From the sequence record KX452698: 64,000 nucleotides of DNA. One strand, given 5' to 3'. Origin of the DNA: Shigella phage KNP5. Made by a program: the position numbers and the translations under genes. Positions within the stretch are counted from its first letter, which is position 1, and each line of letters begins with the position of its first letter. Below the pieces are notes generated by a model, which was not told where the DNA came from, searched no databases, and worked only from the letters and a program-made list of their open reading frames with translations. This document shows, piece after piece, positions 2,273-58,547 of the stretch.

Positions 2273-2307
2273 AGATAATACTATCACAAAGGAACCATAC
2301 TGTAAAC
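2273..2307 (-). promoter_or_regulatory. T4-type early promoter (GTTTAC ... TAGTATTAT)
   Basis: Minus-strand GTTTAC -35 with 17 nt spacer to extended -10; sits just downstream of hairpin terminator. Confidence 0.55.
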
Positions 2308-2325
2308 AACTTTGTGCAATCTTTG

Positions 2326-2356
2326 GAAAATAAAAAAGGACTCCCGAAGGAGTCCT
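2326..2356 (-). terminator. rho-independent terminator
   Basis: Hairpin GGACTCC-TTCG-GGAGTCC followed by TTTTTTATTTT on minus strand. Confidence 0.6.
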
Positions 2357-2360
2357 CAAC

Positions 2361-5938: not shown

Positions 5939-5963
5939 TTCAATTTCCTCATTTGTTTTGGTA

Positions 5964-5998
5964 GAGCTATAATATCACAACTCTACCATAAAGTAAAC
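5964..5998 (-). promoter_or_regulatory. T4-type early promoter
   Basis: Minus-strand GTTTAC and TATTATAG -10 flanked by inverted repeat. Confidence 0.5.
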
Positions 5999-9261: not shown

Positions 9262-9287
9262 CATAAAGTCCTCATGTTATGTCAGTA

Positions 9288-9322
9288 ATACTACTATAAC
9301 ACAACACGAGGGACTTGTAAAC
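9288..9322 (-). promoter_or_regulatory. T4-type early promoter upstream of alc
   Basis: Minus-strand GTTTAC -35 and TATAGT -10. Confidence 0.45.
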
Positions 9323-17126: not shown

Positions 17127-17147
17127 TTTATTCCCCTTAGTTGATAG

Positions 17148-17181
17148 GGTAATAGTATCACACTACTACCCTACTGTAAAC
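17148..17181 (-). promoter_or_regulatory. T4-type early promoter
   Basis: Minus-strand GTTTAC then GTGTGATACTATTA. Confidence 0.5.
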
Positions 17182-17605: not shown

Positions 17606-17836
17606 TTATTGTTCAATCAATCCCATGTAAAATTCTGCGTCTTCAGAATCCATGCCATCACAGTATTCATTAGCCATAAAGCGGGTGAGGTCTTCAAGAG
17701 GACCTTCAATGACAATAGAAAAATTGCAATAATTGGGATCATCGTGAATACTTGTGATACTAAGTTCAGGATAACGATTACGAATAATTTCTTCAATATA
17801 TTCAAAATCAACGATGTCAATATCAACTTTAGCCAT
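17606..17836 (-). CDS. hypothetical acidic protein, about 76 aa (start trimmed to MAKVDID)
   Basis: ORF track 17606..17857; internal ATG has better SD (AAGAGGAAA); occupies position downstream of gene 32. Confidence 0.45.
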
Positions 17837-17875
17837 ATTATTTTCCTCTTTAATCATCAGCAGTATTGCCGATAG

Positions 17876-17909
17876 TTGTATAGTACCATAAAGCTTTATG
17901 CTTGTAAAC
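17876..17909 (-). promoter_or_regulatory. T4-type early promoter downstream of gene 32 terminator
   Basis: Minus-strand GTTTAC, spacer, TGGTACTATACAACTATC. Confidence 0.6.
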
Positions 17910-17940
17910 CGTTTTGTGAAAAAATTTTTGAAATAAAAAA
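17904..17940 (-). repeat. ~37 bp promoter-upstream repeat, copy 1
   Basis: GTAAACCGTTTTGTGAAAAAATTTTTGAAATAAAAAA nearly identical to 34583-34620 and partly to 38393-38425. Confidence 0.6.
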
Positions 17941-17959
17941 GGGGACCTCTAGGGTCCCC
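17931..17959 (-). terminator. rho-independent terminator after gene 32
   Basis: GGGGACC-CTAGA-GGTCCCC followed by TTTTTTATTT on minus strand. Confidence 0.65.
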
Positions 17960-17981: not shown

Positions 17982-18890
17982 TTAAAGGTCATTCAAAAGG
18001 TCATCCAGGTCCGTGTCATCAGCACTAGATGAACTGCCAGAGCTTGAGCTCATAAAATCATCTTCAGTTTTTGTATTGAAGTCATCAACATTGAATGCAT
18101 CCAAATCATCAGCAACTTTATCAGCTTTCTTAGCGGCAGTCGCTGCGGCACCACCCATAGCAGCAGTTCCCATAACTTGACTGAACTTAGTGCTCAGTTC
18201 TTCAAACGATTTGAATTTATCTTTAGAAGTCATTTCAGAAAGGTCAACCATTTGTTCGAACAGTTCTTTCTGGAAAGATTCATCATCAATGTTTGGAATC
18301 GCAGATTGATTCAGGAATTTAGATTCGTCGTAGTTACTAAAACCAGAAACTTGTTTAACTTTCAGTACAAAGTTAGCACCTTCCCACGGACAAGTTACAT
18401 CAACCGGAGTTTCACCCATTTCAACATCAACTGCAATCATTGCATTGATTTTATCCCAGATTTTCTTACCGAAGCGGTATTTAAATACTTTACCTTCATT
18501 TTCTGGAGCAGCTGGGTCTTTTACTACAAGAATGTTAGCCCAGTAAGAAGTTTTACGTTTAACAAGACCGTATTCTTTATTGTCAGTATTGTACAAATCA
18601 TTTTTACTGATGTACTGACATACTGGACAAGAATCGTAATCACCGTGGGTAGATGAACAGTTTTCAATATACCATTTACCATTTTTCTTGAAACCGTGAT
18701 TTACAAGAATTGCGAATGGTGCTTGTTCATCATTTTTAGACGGAAGAAAACGAATTACTGCTTGACCATTACCCGCGTTATCGAGTTTCAGTTTCCACTC
18801 GCCTTTATCTTCAGAAGAAAAACCACCTTTATTTCCAGCCAGTTTAGCCATTTGTGCAGCGAGTTCAGCAGTAGATTTACGTTTAAACAT
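17982..18890 (-). CDS. 32: single-stranded DNA-binding protein gp32
   Basis: 302 aa; sequence matches T4 gp32 as recalled incl. zinc-binding [10 protein letters not shown] region and acidic C-terminal tail. Confidence 0.93.
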
Positions 18891-21255: not shown

Positions 21256-24200
21256 ATGGCCGAGATTAAAAGAAAGTTCAGAGCAGAAGATGGTCTGGAC
21301 GCAGGTGGCGATAAAATAATCAACGTAGCTTTAGCTGATCGTGCCGTAGGAACTGACGGTGTTAACGTTGATTACCTAATTCAAGAAAACACAGTTCAAC
21401 AATATGATCCAACTCGTGGATATTTAAAAGATTTTGTAATCATTTATGATAACCGCTTTTGGGCTGCTATAAATGATATTCCAAAACCAGCGGGAGCTTT
21501 TAATAGCGTACGTTGGAGAGCATTACGTACTGATGCAAACTGGACAACTGTTTCGTCAGGACCTTATCAATTAAAGTCAGGTGAATCAATTTCAGTTAAT
21601 ACTGCAGCAGGAAATGATATCACATTTACTTTGCCAACTTCTCCAATTGATGGAGATACTATCGTTCTTCAAGATATTGGTGGAAAACCTGGAGTTAACC
21701 AAGTTTTAATTGTAGCTCCAGTGCAAAGTATTGTAAACTTTAGAGGCGAACAAGTACGATCAGTACTAATGACCCATCCAAAATCACAGATAGTTTTAAT
21801 TTTTAGTAATCGTCTGTGGCAAATGTATGTGGCTGATTATAGCAGAGAAGCGGTAGTTGTGACGCCAGCAAGTCTCTACCAGGCGCAGTCAAACGATTTT
21901 ATCGTGCGTAGATTTACTTCCGCTGCGCCTATTAATATTAAACTTCCGAGATTTGCTAATCATGGCGATATTATTAATTTCGTTGATTTAGATAAATTAA
22001 ATCCTCTTTATCATACAATTGTTACTACATATGATGAAACTACATCAGTACAAGAAGATGGAACTCATTCCATTGAAGGCCGTACATCTATTGACGGTTT
22101 CTTGATGTATGATGATAACGAAAAACTGTGGAGATTGTTTGACGGGGATAGTAAAGCACGTTTACGTATCATAACGACTAATTCAAATATTCGTCCAAAT
22201 GAAGAAGTTATGGTATTTGGTGCGAATAACGGAACAACTCAAACGATTGAGCTTCAGCTTCCGACCGATATTTCTGTTGGTGATACTGTTAAAATTTCCA
22301 TGAATTACATGAGAAAAGGGCAAACAGTTAAAATCAAAGCTGCTGGTGAAGATAAAATTGCTTCTTCAGTTCAATTGTTGCAATTCCCAAAACGTTCAGA
22401 ATATCCACCTGAAGCTGAATGGGTGACTGTTCAAGAATTAGTTTTTAACGGTGAAACTAATTATGTTCCAGTTTTACAGCTTGCTTATATAGAAGATTCT
22501 GACGGAAAATACTGGGTTGTACAGCAAAACGTTCCAACAGTTGAAAGAGTTGATTCTTTAAATGATTCTACTAGAGCAAGATTAGGCGTGATTGCTTTAG
22601 CTACACAAGCTCAAGCTAACGTCGATTTAGAAAATTCTCCACAAAAAGAATTAGCAATTACTCCAGAAACATTAGCTAACCGTACTGCTACAGAAACTCG
22701 TAGAGGTATCGCAAGAATAGCAACCACTGCTCAAGTGAATCAGGATACTACATTCTCTTTTGCTGACGATATTATCATCACTCCTAAAAAGCTGAATGAA
22801 AGAACTGCTACAGAAACTCGTAGAGGTGTTGCTGAAATTGCTACACAGCAAGAAACTAACGCAGGTACTGATGATACTGCAATCATCACTCCTAAAAAGC
22901 TTCAAGCTCGTCAGGGTTCTGAATCATTATCAGGTATTGTAACCTTTGTATCTACCGCAGGAGCTACTCCAGCTTCTAGTCGTGAATTAAATGGTACAAA
23001 CGTTTATAATAAAAACACTAATAATTTAGTTGTTTCGCCTAAAGCTCTGGATCAGTATAAAGCTACTCCAACACAACAAGGTGCAGTAATTTTAGCAGTT
23101 GAAAGTGAAGTAATTGCTGGACAAAGTCAAGAAGGATGGGCAAATGCGGTTGTAACGCCAGAAACGTTACATAAAAAGACATCAACTGATGCAAGAATTG
23201 GTTTAATTGAAATTGCTACGCAAAGTGAAGTTAATACAGGAACTGATTATACTCGCGCAGTCACTCCTAAAACTTTAAATGACCGTAAAGCAACTGAAAG
23301 TTTAAGTGGTATAGCTGAAATTGCTACACAAGTTGAATTCGACGCAGGCGTCGACGATACTCGTATCTCTACACCATTAAAAATTAAAACCAGATTTAAT
23401 AGTACTGATCGTACTTCTGTTGTTGCTCTATCTGGATTAGTTGAATCAGGAACTCTCTGGGACCATTATACCCTTAATATTCTTGAAGCAAATGAGACAC
23501 AGCGTGGTACACTTCGTGTGGCTACACAAGTTGAAGCTGCTGCAGGAACATTAGATAATGTTCTAATAACTCCTAAAAAGCTTTTAGGTACTAAATCTAC
23601 TGAAGCGCAAGAAGGCGTTATTAAAGTTGCAACTCAGGTTGAAACTGTAGCTGGAACGTCAGCAAATACTGCTGTATCTCCAAAAAATTTAAAATGGATT
23701 GTACAGAGTGAACCTACTTGGGCAGCAACTACTCTGGTAAGAGGTTTTGTTAAAACTTCATCCGGTTCAATTACATTCGTTGGTAATGATACCGTTGGTT
23801 CAACACAGTCATTAGAATTATACGAAAAAAATAGCTATGCAGTATCGCCATATGAATTAAACCGTGTATTAGCAAATTATTTGCCGTTAAAAGCAAAAGC
23901 TGCAGATAGTAATTTATTGGATGGTCTAGATTCATCCCAGTTCATTCGTAGGGATATTGCGCAGACGGTTAATGGTTCACTAACCTTAACACAACAAACG
24001 AATCTGAGTGCCCCTCTTGTATCATCTAGTACTGCTACGTTTGGTGGATCAGTTTCGGCAAATAGTACACTAACTATTTCTAATACTGATGGAACAGCAA
24101 CTCGTCTGATTTTTGAGAAAGGACCTCAAACTGGAACGAACCCGGCTCAAACGATGACAGTCAGCGTGTGGGGGAATCAATTTAGTGGGGAATCAAACAC

Positions 24201-26979: not shown

Positions 26980-31102
<4,123 letters not shown>

Positions 31103-33881: not shown

Positions 33882-34517
33882 TCACAGTTCAGATGCTACG
33901 GTGATTACTGCTTCAATGTTTTCTGCCGAGCGTTTAATGTCAAGATACACATTACCATTTTTAGCGATTTTACATGACATTCCGATATCAGTAAATTTCT
34001 GAATATGATGTTCCATCATTTTGTATCCAAAAATTCGCATATTTCCATTGTTGTTAATTTCAAAATTGCGAATTCCATGAGTGCGTTTTTCTAAAATAGC
34101 AAGATAGTTACTGCGGTAAGTTTCAACCTTTTTAAGAACAAATCCATTTTCATCTAAAAGTTTTAACATGAAGTCTTTATCTTCTTCCATATCGGAAGTA
34201 ATCTCACGAGCTTTACGAGTTGCTCGTTTTTTCAGCAGTTCAGGAGCATTTTCCTGCGCATATAAAGTTGCTGCATTTGAAATAATATCCTGAGCTTCAC
34301 CTGTAATGATTAATCCATCACCAGATTTCTCCACCAGGCCTTTTTTAATCAATACCCCAATATTACTATTAACTACTGCGTTACCTAAATCTGGATGCAC
34401 CTCACGAACTTCTGCAGCTGTAATGAAATCTTTCTTAGCAATGGTAATTAAAATCGCAGCAGTTTTTTCATTCAGAACATCGTTAGAAGCTTTGATGATG
34501 TAAGTTACTTTAGACAT
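33882..34517 (-). CDS. motA: middle transcription activator MotA
   Basis: 211 aa; matches T4 MotA size and sequence as recalled; early promoter upstream. Confidence 0.92.
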   Translation of the reverse strand: MSKVTYIIKASNDVLNEKTAAILITIAKKDFITAAEVREVHPDLGNAVVNSNIGVLIKKGLVEKSGDGLIITGEAQDIISNAATLYAQENAPELLKKRATRKAREITSDMEEDKDFMLKLLDENGFVLKKVETYRSNYLAILEKRTHGIRNFEINNNGNMRIFGYKMMEHHIQKFTDIGMSCKIAKNGNVYLDIKRSAENIEAVITVASEL

Positions 34518-34555
34518 TTTCTAATCTCCGTAATTCTGTATCAGTAGTTGATAGT

Positions 34556-34588
34556 TGTATAATACCACAGTATGCTTTGGTTGTAAAC
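34556..34588 (-). promoter_or_regulatory. T4-type early promoter upstream of motA
   Basis: Minus-strand GTTTAC, spacer, TGTGGTATTATACAACTATCAACTAC. Confidence 0.6.
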
Positions 34589-34620
34589 CGTTTTGTGAAA
34601 AAATTTTTGAAATAAAAAAA
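34583..34620 (-). repeat. ~37 bp promoter-upstream repeat, copy 2
   Basis: Near-identical to 17904-17940. Confidence 0.6.
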
Positions 34621-34640
34621 GGGAGAGCCAAGGCTCTCCC
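34611..34640 (-). terminator. rho-independent terminator
   Basis: GGGAGAGCC-TT-GGCTCTCCC followed by TTTTTTTATTT on minus strand. Confidence 0.6.
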
Positions 34641-34645
34641 TAAAA

Positions 34646-37834: not shown

Positions 37835-37859
37835 TTTCTGTTCCTCCGTAGTTGATAGG

Positions 37860-37892
37860 ATAATAATACCACAGAGGAACAGTCTTGTAAAC
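37860..37892 (-). promoter_or_regulatory. T4-type early promoter
   Basis: Minus-strand GTTTAC, spacer, TGTGGTATTATTAT; followed by GGAGG SD. Confidence 0.5.
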
Positions 37893-38340: not shown

Positions 38341-38365
38341 TTTTTACTCCTCCGTAGCTGATAGT

Positions 38366-38398
38366 TGTATAGTACCACAGTCCTTGTGGTATGTAAAC
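38366..38398 (-). promoter_or_regulatory. T4-type early promoter downstream of denB
   Basis: Minus-strand GTTTAC, spacer with CCACAAGGACTGTGG palindrome, TGGTACTATACAACTATC. Confidence 0.55.
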
Positions 38399-38415
38399 CG
38401 TTTTGTGAAAATTTT

Positions 38416-38973
38416 TTAAATGGAAAGATACCATCCGTTGTAGTTGCTTTTTCTTACAACCTTACGAAGGTCTTCTCTATCACCGATGAACTTCGGAGTG
38501 TACTGGATGACACCTGGGTGAATTTCTTTAGTGTTGAATATAATTATACAGTCAGCGACCTGATGATTCAGAATGGGCCCTAGATTTATTCCAGAACCAT
38601 ATGGATACTCTCCGCTGCATCCTGTTGTTACAGAAATCCAACGTGAGTCAGTTTGATGTGTCTTAACTTCTACACGAAGCCCGCAGTATCTTGGATGCGC
38701 CAATACATCCCATGCGTATGTATACGGGTCATTAACGTCCTCTTGGCCTTTATTAACATACCCGCTTAGCCAATCTGCTACAAAAAACTCTGCGTACACC
38801 GCGATACGGCATCTTTCGATAACTTCTGCTTTATCCTGATTTGGATTTTGTTTTAAAGAGTATCTTGCTGTATCAGCAATTTTGACCTTCATTTCACTAG
38901 TCAAGTCACTGTTCGATAGGGTAAATGTCGGAATCTGAAATAGTCTCTGTAAACCCGGATTCGTTTTCTGCAT
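38416..38973 (-). CDS. denB: endonuclease IV
   Basis: 185 aa; size and position (between ndd cluster and rIIB) as T4 denB. Confidence 0.85.
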   Translation of the reverse strand: MQKTNPGLQRLFQIPTFTLSNSDLTSEMKVKIADTARYSLKQNPNQDKAEVIERCRIAVYAEFFVADWLSGYVNKGQEDVNDPYTYAWDVLAHPRYCGLRVEVKTHQTDSRWISVTTGCSGEYPYGSGINLGPILNHQVADCIIIFNTKEIHPGVIQYTPKFIGDREDLRKVVRKSNYNGWYLSI

Positions 38974-39235: not shown

Positions 39236-39243
39236 AATTTTTC

Positions 39244-39270
39244 CTTAAAACAAAAGGGCCGAAGCCCCTT
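39244..39270 (-). terminator. rho-independent terminator
   Basis: GGGGCTTCGGCCC followed by TTTTGTTTT on minus strand after ORF 39274..39468. Confidence 0.5.
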
Positions 39271-39273
39271 ATT

Positions 39274-39468
39274 TTATTTGAATTGTGCAATTCTTTTTTC
39301 TAAACAGTCTGCGTAAGATTTCATTGAGATGAACTGTGAAAGCAGTAATTCTTGCTCAACTTCATTAACTGATAGAAACTTTGTGCTTTCTAAAAATTTG
39401 CTCAGTGCATTAATTTTGAGCATTAATTGATCGTATTCTTCTTTTACTCGTGCTTGATAACCTAACAT
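39274..39468 (-). CDS. hypothetical protein, 64 aa
   Basis: ORF track; flanked by GC hairpins. Confidence 0.5.
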   Translation of the reverse strand: MLGYQARVKEEYDQLMLKINALSKFLESTKFLSVNEVEQELLLSQFISMKSYADCLEKRIAQFK

Positions 39469-39496
39469 AATTTTCCTTAGTTAAGGGCCGAAGCCC

Positions 39497-40435
39497 TTAT
39501 TTAAATTGTTCAGTAACGTCTTCAACTACTTCATATTGGCAGGTACGCATTTTAGCATCGTTGTAATCAATCGGAATTGATACTACATCACGCGGATGCA
39601 CTTTAACTTTTACAACTCGACTGGTTGAACTACCAAAGTGACGAATATAAGATTTAGAACACACATGCAGACCACGAGAACAAGTTTGTGTATCATCGTC
39701 ATTCACACGAGTACGTGGCATTTTAACTACTTTACCAGGGCTGTTATCAAAAGTATTTGAATGACAGTCAAAGTAATTACTGCGAACTACTTTCCAAGCA
39801 TAGAAGTAGCCATCTTCTGTAATTTCAATATCGTTTGCTACCAAGAAATCAAAGAGTCGAGATACCGCTTTTTGGCTCGGGTTTTCCAACAGATTTTCCA
39901 AGAACGGAAAATAAAATTCAAAGTTTTCGCCTTTTTCCATCGAATCGAGAATACGATCAACTAAACCAGACCGCAATTCAATATTTTGATAGAACAAGCT
40001 TCCACCTTCAATTCGAACATCACCGGAAATATATTTTTCAACAGCGCGACGAACGTTAATTTTTTGCGCCGCTTCTTCCAATTTATCTGCAACAAGCAGA
40101 TTAAGAATTTCCTGGAAGTTTGAATGAGTATTAGGAGTTGCGTTATAAGTTACACCGTCAGCAGTAATTGAAATGAATTTTTTAGATGCATTCCAAATAA
40201 TGTCAGATTTAGCAACTGGAGCAATGGCTACATCACTCTTAACTTCAACTGTAATGTCACCGCTAATGGTAACTTTGGAACGCTCAGCTTCTTCAGCATT
40301 TTTCAAAACACGACGGATTGTGTCAACCGATACACCTTGCCAATCAGCCAATTCCTGTTGGGTGTAATTACCACTTGAATACAGTTTGACAATTTCAGCT
40401 TGTTCGTTTTTGGTCAGGCATTTAATATTGTACAT
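39497..40435 (-). CDS. rIIB: rIIB
   Basis: 312 aa; N-terminus MYNIKCLTKNEQAEIVKLYSSGNYTQQELADWQGVS as recalled for T4 rIIB. Confidence 0.92.
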   Translation of the reverse strand: MYNIKCLTKNEQAEIVKLYSSGNYTQQELADWQGVSVDTIRRVLKNAEEAERSKVTISGDITVEVKSDVAIAPVAKSDIIWNASKKFISITADGVTYNATPNTHSNFQEILNLLVADKLEEAAQKINVRRAVEKYISGDVRIEGGSLFYQNIELRSGLVDRILDSMEKGENFEFYFPFLENLLENPSQKAVSRLFDFLVANDIEITEDGYFYAWKVVRSNYFDCHSNTFDNSPGKVVKMPRTRVNDDDTQTCSRGLHVCSKSYIRHFGSSTSRVVKVKVHPRDVVSIPIDYNDAKMRTCQYEVVEDVTEQFK

Positions 40436-46232: not shown

Positions 46233-46405
46233 TACAATTTCCTCATTAATTGAACAGTGGAGCGATGCGTTTCAGAAGAGTGGCAGCACCTTTGGCAAAT
46301 TTTCCATTTTATTCTCCAAGTTGTTTTCTGTATCAGTAGTTGATATTGATATAGTACCATAATCAACTACTGATGTATATAGTTTATGAAAAAAAAAATT
46401 AAACT

Positions 46406-46903: not shown

Positions 46904-46979
46904 AGTTATCTCTCACCTGTTAAAAAGATTTTATACTCCACAGGACCATTATACTCTGGTCCCAAGAGTTTGTAAACTA

Positions 46980-48022: not shown

Positions 48023-48046
48023 TTTATTATCCTCAGTAGCTATGGT

Positions 48047-48079
48047 GTTATAATACCACAACTAACCGAGGAAGTAAAC
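48047..48079 (-). promoter_or_regulatory. T4-type early promoter
   Basis: Minus-strand GTTTAC, spacer, TGTGGTATTATAAC. Confidence 0.55.
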
Positions 48080-52596: not shown

Positions 52597-53228
52597 TCAA
52601 CTACCTCAATATCATACACTTTAAATGTTCCAAATGAATCGTGTAATTTTTCTTTTGAAATAGAAGTTATTTTATACTTTCCAATTGGAATCATCCATTC
52701 TTGTTCACGTACAATCATCATTAAGTTATCAGTACGTTCTGAATCTAATCCATCAGTATCTTCATATGTATACTTAAACTCAGTATTAGGAGAAGAAAGT
52801 ATAATATCGCTGATATGGTCAGAATAATTAAAAGCTTTATCAGTTTTTAAGCGAAATATTATTTCAGTGGAATATTCAACATAAGAAAAACCACATGCTG
52901 TATGCAAACTAGTAGTAAATGAATCTACTCTGTTCGTTGAAAACACTTCTCCGACTTGTAAATCTTTAATGAGTTCTTTTGTCGATTTTGATATACCACG
53001 ATATAGCTGATAAGGCGATTTAGTTAAATGCTTTTTAACGATTTTATTCAACTGCTGATGAAGAGCTTCATTCTTTTTGGCTTCCATACATTGCCAAAGA
53101 ACTGACTGTTCAAAGTCAGTAAATTTTTCACAGACCTTTTTATACATATCATATTGAAAATCAACACTTTCAGCTTTTATAGATAACTGTTCAACATCTG
53201 CAAGATTAATAATCATGATAGCCTCCAT
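52593..53228 (-). CDS. modB: ADP-ribosyltransferase ModB
   Basis: 211 aa; paralog of ModA with REQEWMIP motif. Confidence 0.8.
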   Translation of the reverse strand: MEAIMIINLADVEQLSIKAESVDFQYDMYKKVCEKFTDFEQSVLWQCMEAKKNEALHQQLNKIVKKHLTKSPYQLYRGISKSTKELIKDLQVGEVFSTNRVDSFTTSLHTACGFSYVEYSTEIIFRLKTDKAFNYSDHISDIILSSPNTEFKYTYEDTDGLDSERTDNLMMIVREQEWMIPIGKYKITSISKEKLHDSFGTFKVYDIEVVE

Positions 53229-53283
53229 ATACTTCAGAAGCTATCATATCATTGTTAGGAAGGAAAGTAAACAACTTTTTGAA

Positions 53284-55345: not shown

Positions 55346-55377
55346 CTATTATACCATACTTGTTTTGGAAAGTAAAC
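55346..55377 (-). promoter_or_regulatory. T4-type early promoter downstream of soc terminator
   Basis: Minus-strand GTTTAC, spacer, TGGTATAAT. Confidence 0.6.
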
Positions 55378-55387
55378 CGGTAAAATG

Positions 55388-55413
55388 AAAAAAAGGACTC
55401 CCGAAGGAGTCCT
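55388..55413 (-). terminator. rho-independent terminator after soc
   Basis: AGGACTCC-TTCG-GGAGTCCT followed by TTTTTTTCATTTT on minus strand; same hairpin sequence as at 2337-2356. Confidence 0.65.
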
Positions 55414-55420
55414 TAAATTA

Positions 55421-55657
55421 TTAACCACCTATTTGTGTAGGCGTAAACATTGCAGCATTCTTAGTTTTCCAATCAGCTGCATCAGAAACTACGGTAGAAT
55501 ATGCTGCCTTTTCAGAAGGAAAGATCTGATAATGAGAATCTGCGATACGATGCTCGTTAGAATAAATTTCAAACGGAACAGAAACTTCCATACCTTTAAC
55601 TTCTTTGCCTTCACCTGCTGGATGAGTAAAGGTCTTGATGTTAACGAAACCACCCAT
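55421..55657 (-). CDS. soc: small outer capsid protein Soc
   Basis: 78 aa; VNIKTF...FPSEKAAYSTV matches T4 Soc as recalled; followed by hairpin terminator. Confidence 0.8.
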   Translation of the reverse strand: MGGFVNIKTFTHPAGEGKEVKGMEVSVPFEIYSNEHRIADSHYQIFPSEKAAYSTVVSDAADWKTKNAAMFTPTQIGG

Positions 55658-58488: not shown

Positions 58489-58513
58489 AACAATCTCCTC
58501 ATTTAACCAACAA

Positions 58514-58547
58514 GACTACTATACCATAGTCTTGTCGGCTTGTAAAC
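58514..58547 (-). promoter_or_regulatory. T4-type early promoter upstream of dmd
   Basis: Minus-strand GTTTAC, spacer containing CAAGACT..AGTCTTG inverted repeat, TGGTATAGT. Confidence 0.5.

Follow-up and report, generated by a model that had tools for sequence, protein, structure and literature searches.

The early promoters of phage T4 were reportedly compiled, by Liebig and Ruger and by Wilkens and Ruger, decades before the PeSLs (see also Miller 2003 and Hinton 2010). They are of the 'UP/-35/TGn/-10' type (PMC2988021; PMC2613000). In the early consensus GTTTAC occupies -36 to -31 (PMC1524935), and the UP subsites, where the alpha-CTD makes contact, extend from -58 to -37 (PMC2613000). PeSLs have a stem-loop that closely precedes an AT-rich region, and their further parts are an early promoter and an SD (PMC4122927; PMC2839356). 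They were first described in RB49 and phi1, where promoter activity, terminator activity and mini-circle formation were shown (PMC2839356), and later in the T4/PST pair, with the promoter sequence TTTACW-N17-TAYWAT and the stem-loop just upstream of it (PMC4122927). PeSL-mediated modular shuffling, with the elements as recombination linkers, has already been proposed (PMC2839356; PMC4122927).

The window analyzed here is a stretch of 64,000 nucleotides from Shigella phage KNP5 (KX452698). A first-pass annotation had described at least five sites on its minus strand at which a GC hairpin and T-run are followed by an early promoter, with the hairpin missing from one site at 38.4 kb (C). Around the sites at 17.9 kb (A) and 34.6 kb (B) the window is 97-100% identical to Tequatrovirus genomes (KNP1, Ec_MI-02, ime09, SA21RB), and judged by its sequence it is a Tequatrovirus (T4-like) genome. 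The flagged sites belong to an already published class, the T4 early promoters and PeSLs (Arbiol 2010; Comeau 2014). Like PeSLs, they join an intergenic terminator, an AT-rich tract, a sigma-70-like early promoter and an SD and are repeated on the early strand, with the stem-loop upstream of, inside or overlapping the promoter. As in the published cases (Arbiol 2010; Comeau 2014; the nt-1/KVP40 pair too), the cassettes stand at the borders of swapped ORFs. With the T4 early promoters they share GTTTAC, TGn, an A/T-rich UP region and the location on the counter-clockwise early strand. Compared with published PeSLs, A and B adjoin core genes (32 and motA) and not the classic hyperplastic region, but nothing essential differs. 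The 39-nt identity of A and B and the exchange of an RB14-type spacer, both presented below, are not mentioned in Arbiol 2010 or Comeau 2014. With the class already known, the details of the loci are incremental, and the finding is real but ordinary. The features are collected in Table 1.

Table 1. Positions of the modules and neighboring genes in the window, and spacer alleles of site A
Feature	Position	Strand	Basis or occurrence
2.3-kb module: hairpin GAGGACTCC-UUCG-GGAGTCCTT and T-run, then GTTTAC-N18-TAGTAT	2278..2357	-	Scan, fold
frd.3	17606..17836	-	First gene under promoter A; identity from T4 frd.3
Module A spacer with palindrome CATAAAGCTTTATG, then TGG and -10 hexamer TACTAT	17880..17903	-	Motif search
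Module A copy of the 39-nt repeat	17902..17940	-	Exact match; T-run, distal and proximal UP subsites, -35
Module A -35, GTTTAC	17904..17909	-	Motif search
Module A terminator GGGGACC-CTAGA-GGTCCCC	17941..17959	-	Scan; fold -14.3 kcal/mol, z -2.0
Gene 32 (single-stranded DNA-binding protein)	17982..18890	-	ORF; gp32 annotation in T4, SA21RB and other relatives
motA (activator of middle transcription)	33882..34517 (low coordinate approximate)	-	Start codon read; under promoter B; identity from relatives
Module B core, motA early promoter: GTTTAC, N18, TGG, TATTAT	34559..34588	-	Motif search, annotation of relatives
Module B copy of the 39-nt repeat	34581..34619	-	Exact match; T-run, UP region, -35
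Module B terminator AGGGAGAGC-CTTG-GCTCTCCCT and T7 run, after motA.1	34620..34641	-	Scan; -16.5 kcal/mol, z -4.0
Module C, same promoter subfamily: TTTTCACAAAACGGTTTACA, TGGTACTAT, ACAACTATC	38369..38413	-	No upstream hairpin/T-run; directly after denB
55.4-kb module after soc: hairpin and T-run, then GTTTAC-N18-TATAAT	55348..55414	-	Scan, fold
A-spacer allele AAGCATAAAGCTTTATGG			Window, T4
A-spacer allele ATCCTTGTCCTTCCATGG			Sf23, RB51, PST, T2
A-spacer allele AACCAAAGCATACTGTGG			RB14, EP01, bov9_1, IsaacDaniel, KAW1E185; one base off in JB75

The order of elements described in the first-pass annotation held at all the sites. A minus-strand terminator scan recovered the four claimed hairpin plus T-run elements (2357-2336, 55414-55393 and the terminators of A and B), and no hairpin with T-run was found at C, whose promoter is numbered 38398. 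As RNA, the four upstream hairpins have folding energies between -14.3 and -16.5 kcal/mol (z between -2.0 and -4.5). Their stems of 7-9 bp contain 5-6 G-C pairs and are directly followed by T6-T7, as in intrinsic terminators; the T-run lies directly after the hairpin at 17935-17940 in module A and at 34613-34619 in module B. From the end of the stem to GTTTAC the distance is 29, 32, 32 and 16 nt at 2.3, 17.9, 34.6 and 55.4 kb, respectively. Terminator A is also annotated in SA21RB, JB75 and KAW1E185 and terminator B in SA21RB, and in the curated relative OL960580.1 both loci carry a rho-independent terminator and a 'T4 early promoter'. The terminator 3' of gene 32 is kept in 5/6 T4-like genomes (PMC1524935). 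When minus-strand terminators with at least 5 G-C pairs were ranked over positions 1-60000 of the window, four of the six strongest had an early promoter 16-32 nt downstream; by our own estimate the chance of this is ~4e-7.

All the sites are intergenic, between the stop of the upstream ORF and the SD and start of the next. Site A is the junction of gene 32 and frd.3, and the unit closed by its terminator is gene 32, the ORF of which ends directly upstream of 17959. Site B is the junction of motA.1 and motA, C lies directly 3' of denB, and the 55.4-kb site separates soc from the next ORF. The 2.3-kb site is located between small ORFs without assigned function. Promoters 38398 and 37892 form a tandem pair of cassettes, at a distance of 506 bp, on either side of one 87-aa ORF. 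A and B are direct repeats offset by 16,679 nt, and the segment flanked by them includes gene 32, gene 59, tail-fibre genes and others.

GTTTAC-N18-TAnnnT is present at 5/5 flagged sites. In the whole window there are 20 GTTTAC-N17/18-TAnnnT sites, all on the minus strand, one of which (21738, where relatives annotate RNase H) is probably no promoter. In PeSL notation all five flagged sites read TTTAC(A/T)-N17-TA(C/T/G)(T/A)AT, and the AT-rich region is TTTTTTATTTCAAAAATTTTTTCACAAAACG at A and B, with comparable A/T tracts elsewhere. As in T4 early promoters, GTTTAC is preceded by an A-rich tract around -40 to -44 (UP element) and is accompanied by a TGn extended -10. A -10 of the form TGGTA(T/C)(A/T)AT had been claimed for all five sites; four fit, and the 2.3-kb promoter (2307) has TGATAGTAT, with TGA and not TGG before the hexamer. 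The T4 motA and frd.3 promoters have the same map positions and differ from the window by one base. We infer promoter and terminator activity in this phage from the consensus, the annotation of relatives and the published work on T4 and RB49. An Rfam scan of the whole window gave no family over threshold, and none overlapped the modules. A reading of TATCAACTACTGA as an IHF site was rejected by eye, as it is without the TTR part of the consensus.

The modules are related to each other in parts. An identical 25-nt terminator, AGGACTCCTTCGGGAGTCCTTTTTT, is common to the 2.3-kb and 55.4-kb modules, the promoters of which differ. This is the opposite of the situation at A and B, and thus hairpin and promoter parts assort independently, an outcome that exchange within the A/T-rich linker would give. 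At A and B, a segment at 17904-17940 had been reported to recur at 34583-34620. The recurrence is exact, but the second copy ends at 34619 and the shared word is longer than reported. The 37-mer GTAAACCGTTTTGTGAAAAAATTTTTGAAATAAAAAA has exactly two occurrences, 17904-17940 and 34583-34619, and gave 0 matches in 100 shuffles. The longest exact word shared by A and B has 39 nt, TTTTTTATTTCAAAAATTTTTTCACAAAACGGTTTACAA in the transcribed sense, and with TTTACA set at -35 to -30 it spans about -67 to -29. Without gaps the similarity extends over 75 nt at 85% (17871-17945 versus 34550-34624); for a third relative, at 38360-38434, the identity is 69%. Over the 31 nt upstream of the -35, A and B are identical at 31/31 positions, compared with an average of 11.9 (sd 3.9) over the promoter pairs as a whole; the next-best pairs share 22 positions, and each of them includes promoter 38398. 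The similarity therefore goes beyond the generic promoter consensus, and the prospect that self-alignment would reduce it to that consensus was not borne out. Both copies occur in hundreds of independent genomes, which excludes an assembly artefact. A role of the repeats in coordinated regulation, as read from the letters, is plausible since the UP element and the -35 are identical.

To place this similarity in context, sites A, B and C were compared in T4, SA21RB, Sf23, RB51, PST, RB14, T2 and KNP1, and site A alone in five more phages. The 18-nt spacer of site A has three unrelated alleles among the phages compared (Table 1). The RB14-type allele equals the invariant spacer of site B, with 18/18 positions in five phages and 17/18 in JB75, and an identity of 95% or more to the RB14 site-A allele over 171 nt is seen in ~55 records. 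For the spacer ATCCTTGTCCTTCCATGG, a search for a donor within the window with up to 3 mismatches gave no match. Both paralogues carry the same C/T polymorphism at about -57: the states at A/B are C/C in the window, SA21RB, Sf23, RB51 and KNP1, T/T in T4, and C/T in PST, RB14 and T2. Within Tequatrovirus (window, T4, RB14) the 76-nt modules A and B are 86-95% identical. Orthologues of these promoters in Mosigvirus mogra and Dhakavirus JS10 reach only 57-68% identity to the Tequatrovirus modules, and their own A and B agree at 59% (mogra) and 70% (JS10) of the 76-nt module. The near-identity of A and B is thus confined to Tequatrovirus and arose or was renewed within it.

Larger replacements were found at the same places. 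An IMG/VR scan with a 27-mer from the repeat returned four loci, a number too small for surveying a population; among them was a Tequatrovirus contig (L007) that matches T4 at 96.5% identity in gene 52 and 94% identity in motA. At site B this contig has an insertion of ~320 bp consisting of a Dhakavirus-like ORF and a JS10-type motA promoter; the inserted promoter is 98.6% identical to the JS10 type over 69 nt, and the left junction lies in a CTATCAA box directly after the T4-type -10. Site C precedes three different ORFs in different phages, again with the junction in the CTATCAA box; Comeau 2014 illustrates this swap with ndd/denB in Fig. 6A (PMC4122927). The indels and replacements typical of PeSLs are therefore seen at B (the contig insertion), C (the alternative ORFs) and A (the spacer alleles). 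The loop of each terminator is found in either orientation, depending on the phage: CTAGA versus TCTAG at A and CGAG versus CTCG at B, where the window has CTTG. At A, all four combinations of loop orientation and spacer were found for two of the alleles, which implies either recombination between loop and spacer or repeated loop flips. At the 55.4-kb module no cassette-linked indel was seen. An indel in NBG2 was considered as a PeSL event and rejected; it lies off the cassette, between gene 56 and soc, so not every nearby rearrangement is PeSL-mediated. The insertion at B behaves like the 'morons' of lambdoid phages, self-contained units in which an ORF lies between its own promoter and terminator, regulatory flanks that allow insertion without harm to the neighbors. 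Morons differ in their G+C contrast and non-homologous acquisition, whereas the T4-type cassettes have conserved linker sequences in common and a genome-like composition (PMC1524935).

These observations are very probably explained by PeSL cassettes of which A and B are paralogues, homogenized in Tequatrovirus and still swapping patches, with the conserved boxes as crossover points. In such a cassette the G+C-rich hairpin and U-run would end the upstream prereplicative transcript, and a very strong sigma-70 early promoter would restart transcription for the next set of genes at infection, so that the stop and restart would insulate the transcription units. The promoter parts are UP (about -58 to -37), GTTTAC (-36 to -31), the TGn extended -10 and the -10 hexamer; the 39-nt repeat comprises the T-run of the terminator, the full UP element and the -35. 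Promoter function does not require the exact sequence found at A and B, and the two promoters are probably nearly identical because such cassettes exchange sequence. A and B would trade short patches by homologous recombination or gene conversion, and the conserved boxes would serve as crossover points for ORF cassettes swapped in and out. In T4 general recombination <50 bp of homology suffices (Singer 1982, as cited in PMC2839356). Given such very short homologies, the shared boxes of 20-40 nt would act as linkers for ectopic conversion and for gain and loss of cassettes. A reciprocal deletion between A and B would be lethal, so only short non-crossover patches would survive, and the replacement of an 18-nt spacer bounded by identical sequence fits such patches. 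The general recombination system of T4 is the likely agent. The RB14-type allele could also represent an ancestral duplication that the other two alleles later replaced, rather than the product of recent conversion. Likewise, that both copies of the 39-mer hardly vary across the Tequatroviruses examined could reflect purifying selection on a specific function, which does not exclude conversion. The first-pass annotation had named the repeats as candidate recombination sites, and this suggestion gained support from the RB14-type spacer at A, the cassette inserted at B in contig L007, the alternative ORFs at site C and the genus-specific identity.

An alternative is that the block TTTCACAAAACGGTTTACA plus TGGTAYTATACAACTATC, common to A, B and C, is an operator or marks a special promoter subclass, kept by selection for co-regulation of motA, the frd-td-nrd unit and the denB-proximal ORFs. 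The response could be, for example, to the alpha subunit ADP-ribosylated by Alt/ModA or to an unidentified early shut-off factor. Every Tequatrovirus examined does have the subfamily at the three loci, with hardly any change, T4 early promoters hold extra conserved information and some respond positively to Alt, and the mechanism of early shut-off is unknown according to the same sources (PMC2988021, PMC3014915). We nevertheless regard this as unlikely. No candidate factor or binding motif was identified, Mosigvirus and Dhakavirus drive the same genes with promoters that do not have the block at site A, and the chimeric and swapped alleles show the block acting as exchangeable homology. Selection of this kind is compatible with exchange between PeSL paralogues and does not replace it.

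Half of the early promoters lie within hairpins, the arms of which change between genera yet stay complementary. The spacer palindromes pointed out in the first-pass annotation are real: CCACA..TGTGG is present at 38398 and 42893, and promoter 17909 of module A carries the 14-nt perfect palindrome CATAAAGCTTTATG instead. The PeSL stem-loop is thus provided by the upstream hairpin at four of the flagged sites and by the spacer stem TACCACA..TGTGGTA at 38398. When spacers were compared with their own downstream 45 nt, the longest complementary word was at least 8 nt for 5/20 promoters, versus 3/380 non-cognate pairings. Cognate left and right halves folded better than chimeras (p = 0.0004 to 0.008 for long constructs), and single promoters folded at z -4.4 to -6.5. 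For the stem of promoter 37892 in seven phages, 98.9% of positions were paired, with five one-sided G-U changes and no double compensatory change; the count is limited to orthologues of 37892, as the symmetry axis shifts by 1-2 nt between paralogous promoters, and this pairing record is suggestive, not decisive. The hairpin of the frd.1 promoter is kept in Dhakavirus with other arms (AGGGTA/TACCCT becoming AAGGCT/AGCCTT). Promoter-embedding inverted repeats were considered as a new feature and dropped, since Arbiol 2010 defines five PeSL subclasses by the position of the stem-loop, among them stem-loops inside the spacer and others that overlap the -10, G-T pairs included (PMC2839356).

The flipped loops of A and B, the clustering of junctions in the CTATCAA box at the transcription start and the hairpin-embedded promoters led us to consider that exchange is guided by structure or by a specific sequence, on the lines of the speculation in Arbiol 2010. 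Hairpin-SD pairing could also tie the translation of an ORF to its own promoter. We give this reading a low probability; if true, hairpin-SD pairing would insulate the cassettes at the RNA level besides the transcription level. That an active recombination system with structure or site specificity acts on the cassettes, or that they are themselves mobile mini-elements and not just passive homology, appears very unlikely. PeSL mini-circles have been detected and a hairpin-binding helper protein was speculated on (Arbiol 2010, PMC2839356), the two loop orientations at A and B imply hairpin or cruciform intermediates, and the junctions do cluster in the CTATCAA box. However, neither a recombinase nor a target-site duplication was seen, the hairpin sequences differ from module to module, ordinary template switching at inverted repeats explains the loop flips, and T4 general recombination works with very short homologies (Singer 1982, as cited in PMC2839356). 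That A and B resemble each other through convergence on an optimal early-promoter consensus under selection for strength, without shared ancestry or exchange, is extremely improbable and largely refuted by the pair statistics, the spacer alleles and the genus comparison: the repeated block does coincide with RNA-polymerase contacts (the alpha-CTD subsites from -58 to -37 as well as the -35) and all 20 sites have a recognizable extended consensus in common, but equally canonical promoters in the window share 11.9 +/- 3.9 of 31 upstream positions versus 31/31, the Mosigvirus and Dhakavirus orthologues of A and B keep the architecture and not the sequence (57-68%), and RB14-type phages have the same 18-nt spacer, which is under no consensus constraint, at both A and B.

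A reading of the sequence alone thus recovered a class of elements that is real, has biological meaning and has been in the literature since 2010. The additions made here are concrete examples of exchange at the borders of core genes, namely homogenization in Tequatrovirus only, a spacer swap, a foreign cassette and flipped loops. They are possible test cases for measuring ectopic gene conversion in T4-like phages and open no new question.

A further resemblance concerns the T4 hairpins that mask ribosome-binding sites (e, soc, 49, I-TevI). In several cassettes of the window the spacer likewise pairs with the SD or start codon, and only RNA reading through from upstream would be masked, a principle taken from PMC3014915. 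The published cases involve late promoters, whereas in the window an early promoter contains the 5' arm; SD masking in read-through RNA would be a plausible extension of them. The 3' arm extends over the SD or start codon at promoters 37892, 9322, 48079, 53272 and 2307, and the -10 lies in or beside the loop at 17181, 1915, 5998, 58547 and 46977.

The terminators at 2.3 and 55.4 kb are 94% identical across 33 nt, with 53 kb separating them. Both contain the exact 25-nt block AGGACTCCTTCGGGAGTCCTTTTTT, which comprises the hairpin with its UUCG loop and the T-run, and the promoters downstream of them are unlike each other. This pair, with its common hairpin and unlike promoters, is the mirror image of the pair formed by site A (gene 32->frd.3 cassette) and site B (motA.1->motA cassette), where the promoter is common and the hairpins are unlike. 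Because the two pairs mirror each other, hairpin and promoter parts assort independently. Coordinates of all features are collected in the table.

Features of the window and their positions
Feature	Position	Strand	Remark
Terminator, 2.3 kb	2332-2364
Terminator, 55.4 kb	55389-55421
Terminator, site A	17941-17959	minus
Terminator, site B	34620-34641	minus
Early promoters embedded in hairpins	17144-17174, 1876-1906, 5959-5988, 58505-58540, 46948-46977 region	minus
Tandem early promoters after denB	38369-38413, 37863-37892		506 nt apart
Cassettes with promoter-SD/start pairing	37838-37882, 9266-9316, 48030-48072, 53214-53248, 2257-2294	minus
GGGGCC-GAAG-CCCC type hairpin family	1447-1484, 30296-30311, 39241-39278, 39470-39507		terminator reading on either strand
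Cassette with degenerate -35	46326-46395	minus	-35 is ATATAC; with TGGTACTAT
Imperfect direct repeat	22657-23327	plus	~68 nt, 3-4 copies, 66-71% identical

Terminator loops at sites A and B were inverted between phages. At site A the loop reads CTAGA in the window, T4, Sf23, and RB51, and TCTAG in RB14, PST, T2, and JB75. At site B it reads CGAG in T4, Sf23, and T2, CTCG in RB51, PST, and RB14, and CTTG in the window. Template switching at inverted repeats would be expected to leave small inversions like these.

In a Tequatrovirus contig from IMG/VR (L007, IMGVR_UViG_3300045988_128797, positions 1287-1690), an insertion of ~320 bp, made up of a Dhakavirus-like ORF and a JS10-type motA promoter, separates motA from its T4-type promoter. 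On the left, the insertion joins the T4-type sequence in the CTATCAA box, the short box at the transcription start just past the -10. On the 3' side of denB, tandem promoters flank one 87-aa ORF. Depending on the phage, the first of these promoters precedes one of three alternative ORFs, starting with MKFKFYY, MKIAD (ndd.6), or MFTTAD, and the leaders are mosaics of one another.

At five sites an early promoter is embedded in a long hairpin, with the -10 hexamer within or next to the loop; RNA folding gave -16 to -21 kcal/mol (z -4.4 to -6.5). Because the two arms lie upstream of the expected start site, the hairpin requires either read-through RNA or single-stranded DNA. In Dhakavirus JS10 the arms are changed in sequence, with complementarity kept. 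These promoters correspond to published subclasses of the promoter-early stem-loop (PeSL) cassette (PMC2839356). In five further cassettes, either the spacer of the promoter or its -10 region pairs with the downstream ORF, at the Shine-Dalgarno sequence or at the start codon. The predicted pairing would mask translation from read-through transcripts, whereas the promoter's own transcript would lack the 5' arm. For promoter 37892, the stem is 98.9% paired among seven phages, and the five changes in it are one-sided and compatible with G-U pairing.

The GGGGCC-GAAG-CCCC hairpins are reminiscent of GGGC/GCCC motifs located at the end points of deletions in T4 (Mosig 1998, cited by Arbiol 2010, PMC2839356). 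The cassette with the degenerate -35 contains a 13-bp inverted repeat (arms ATCAGTAGTTGAT and ATCAACTACTGAT), and its leader is the same as the first part of the motA leader. A T10 run precedes the cassette, which may be a "half" PeSL. Separately, the imperfect direct repeat lies in a region for which the aligned gene in related phages is that of the proximal long tail fibre (gp34), and it is probably the trace of a repeated protein motif.
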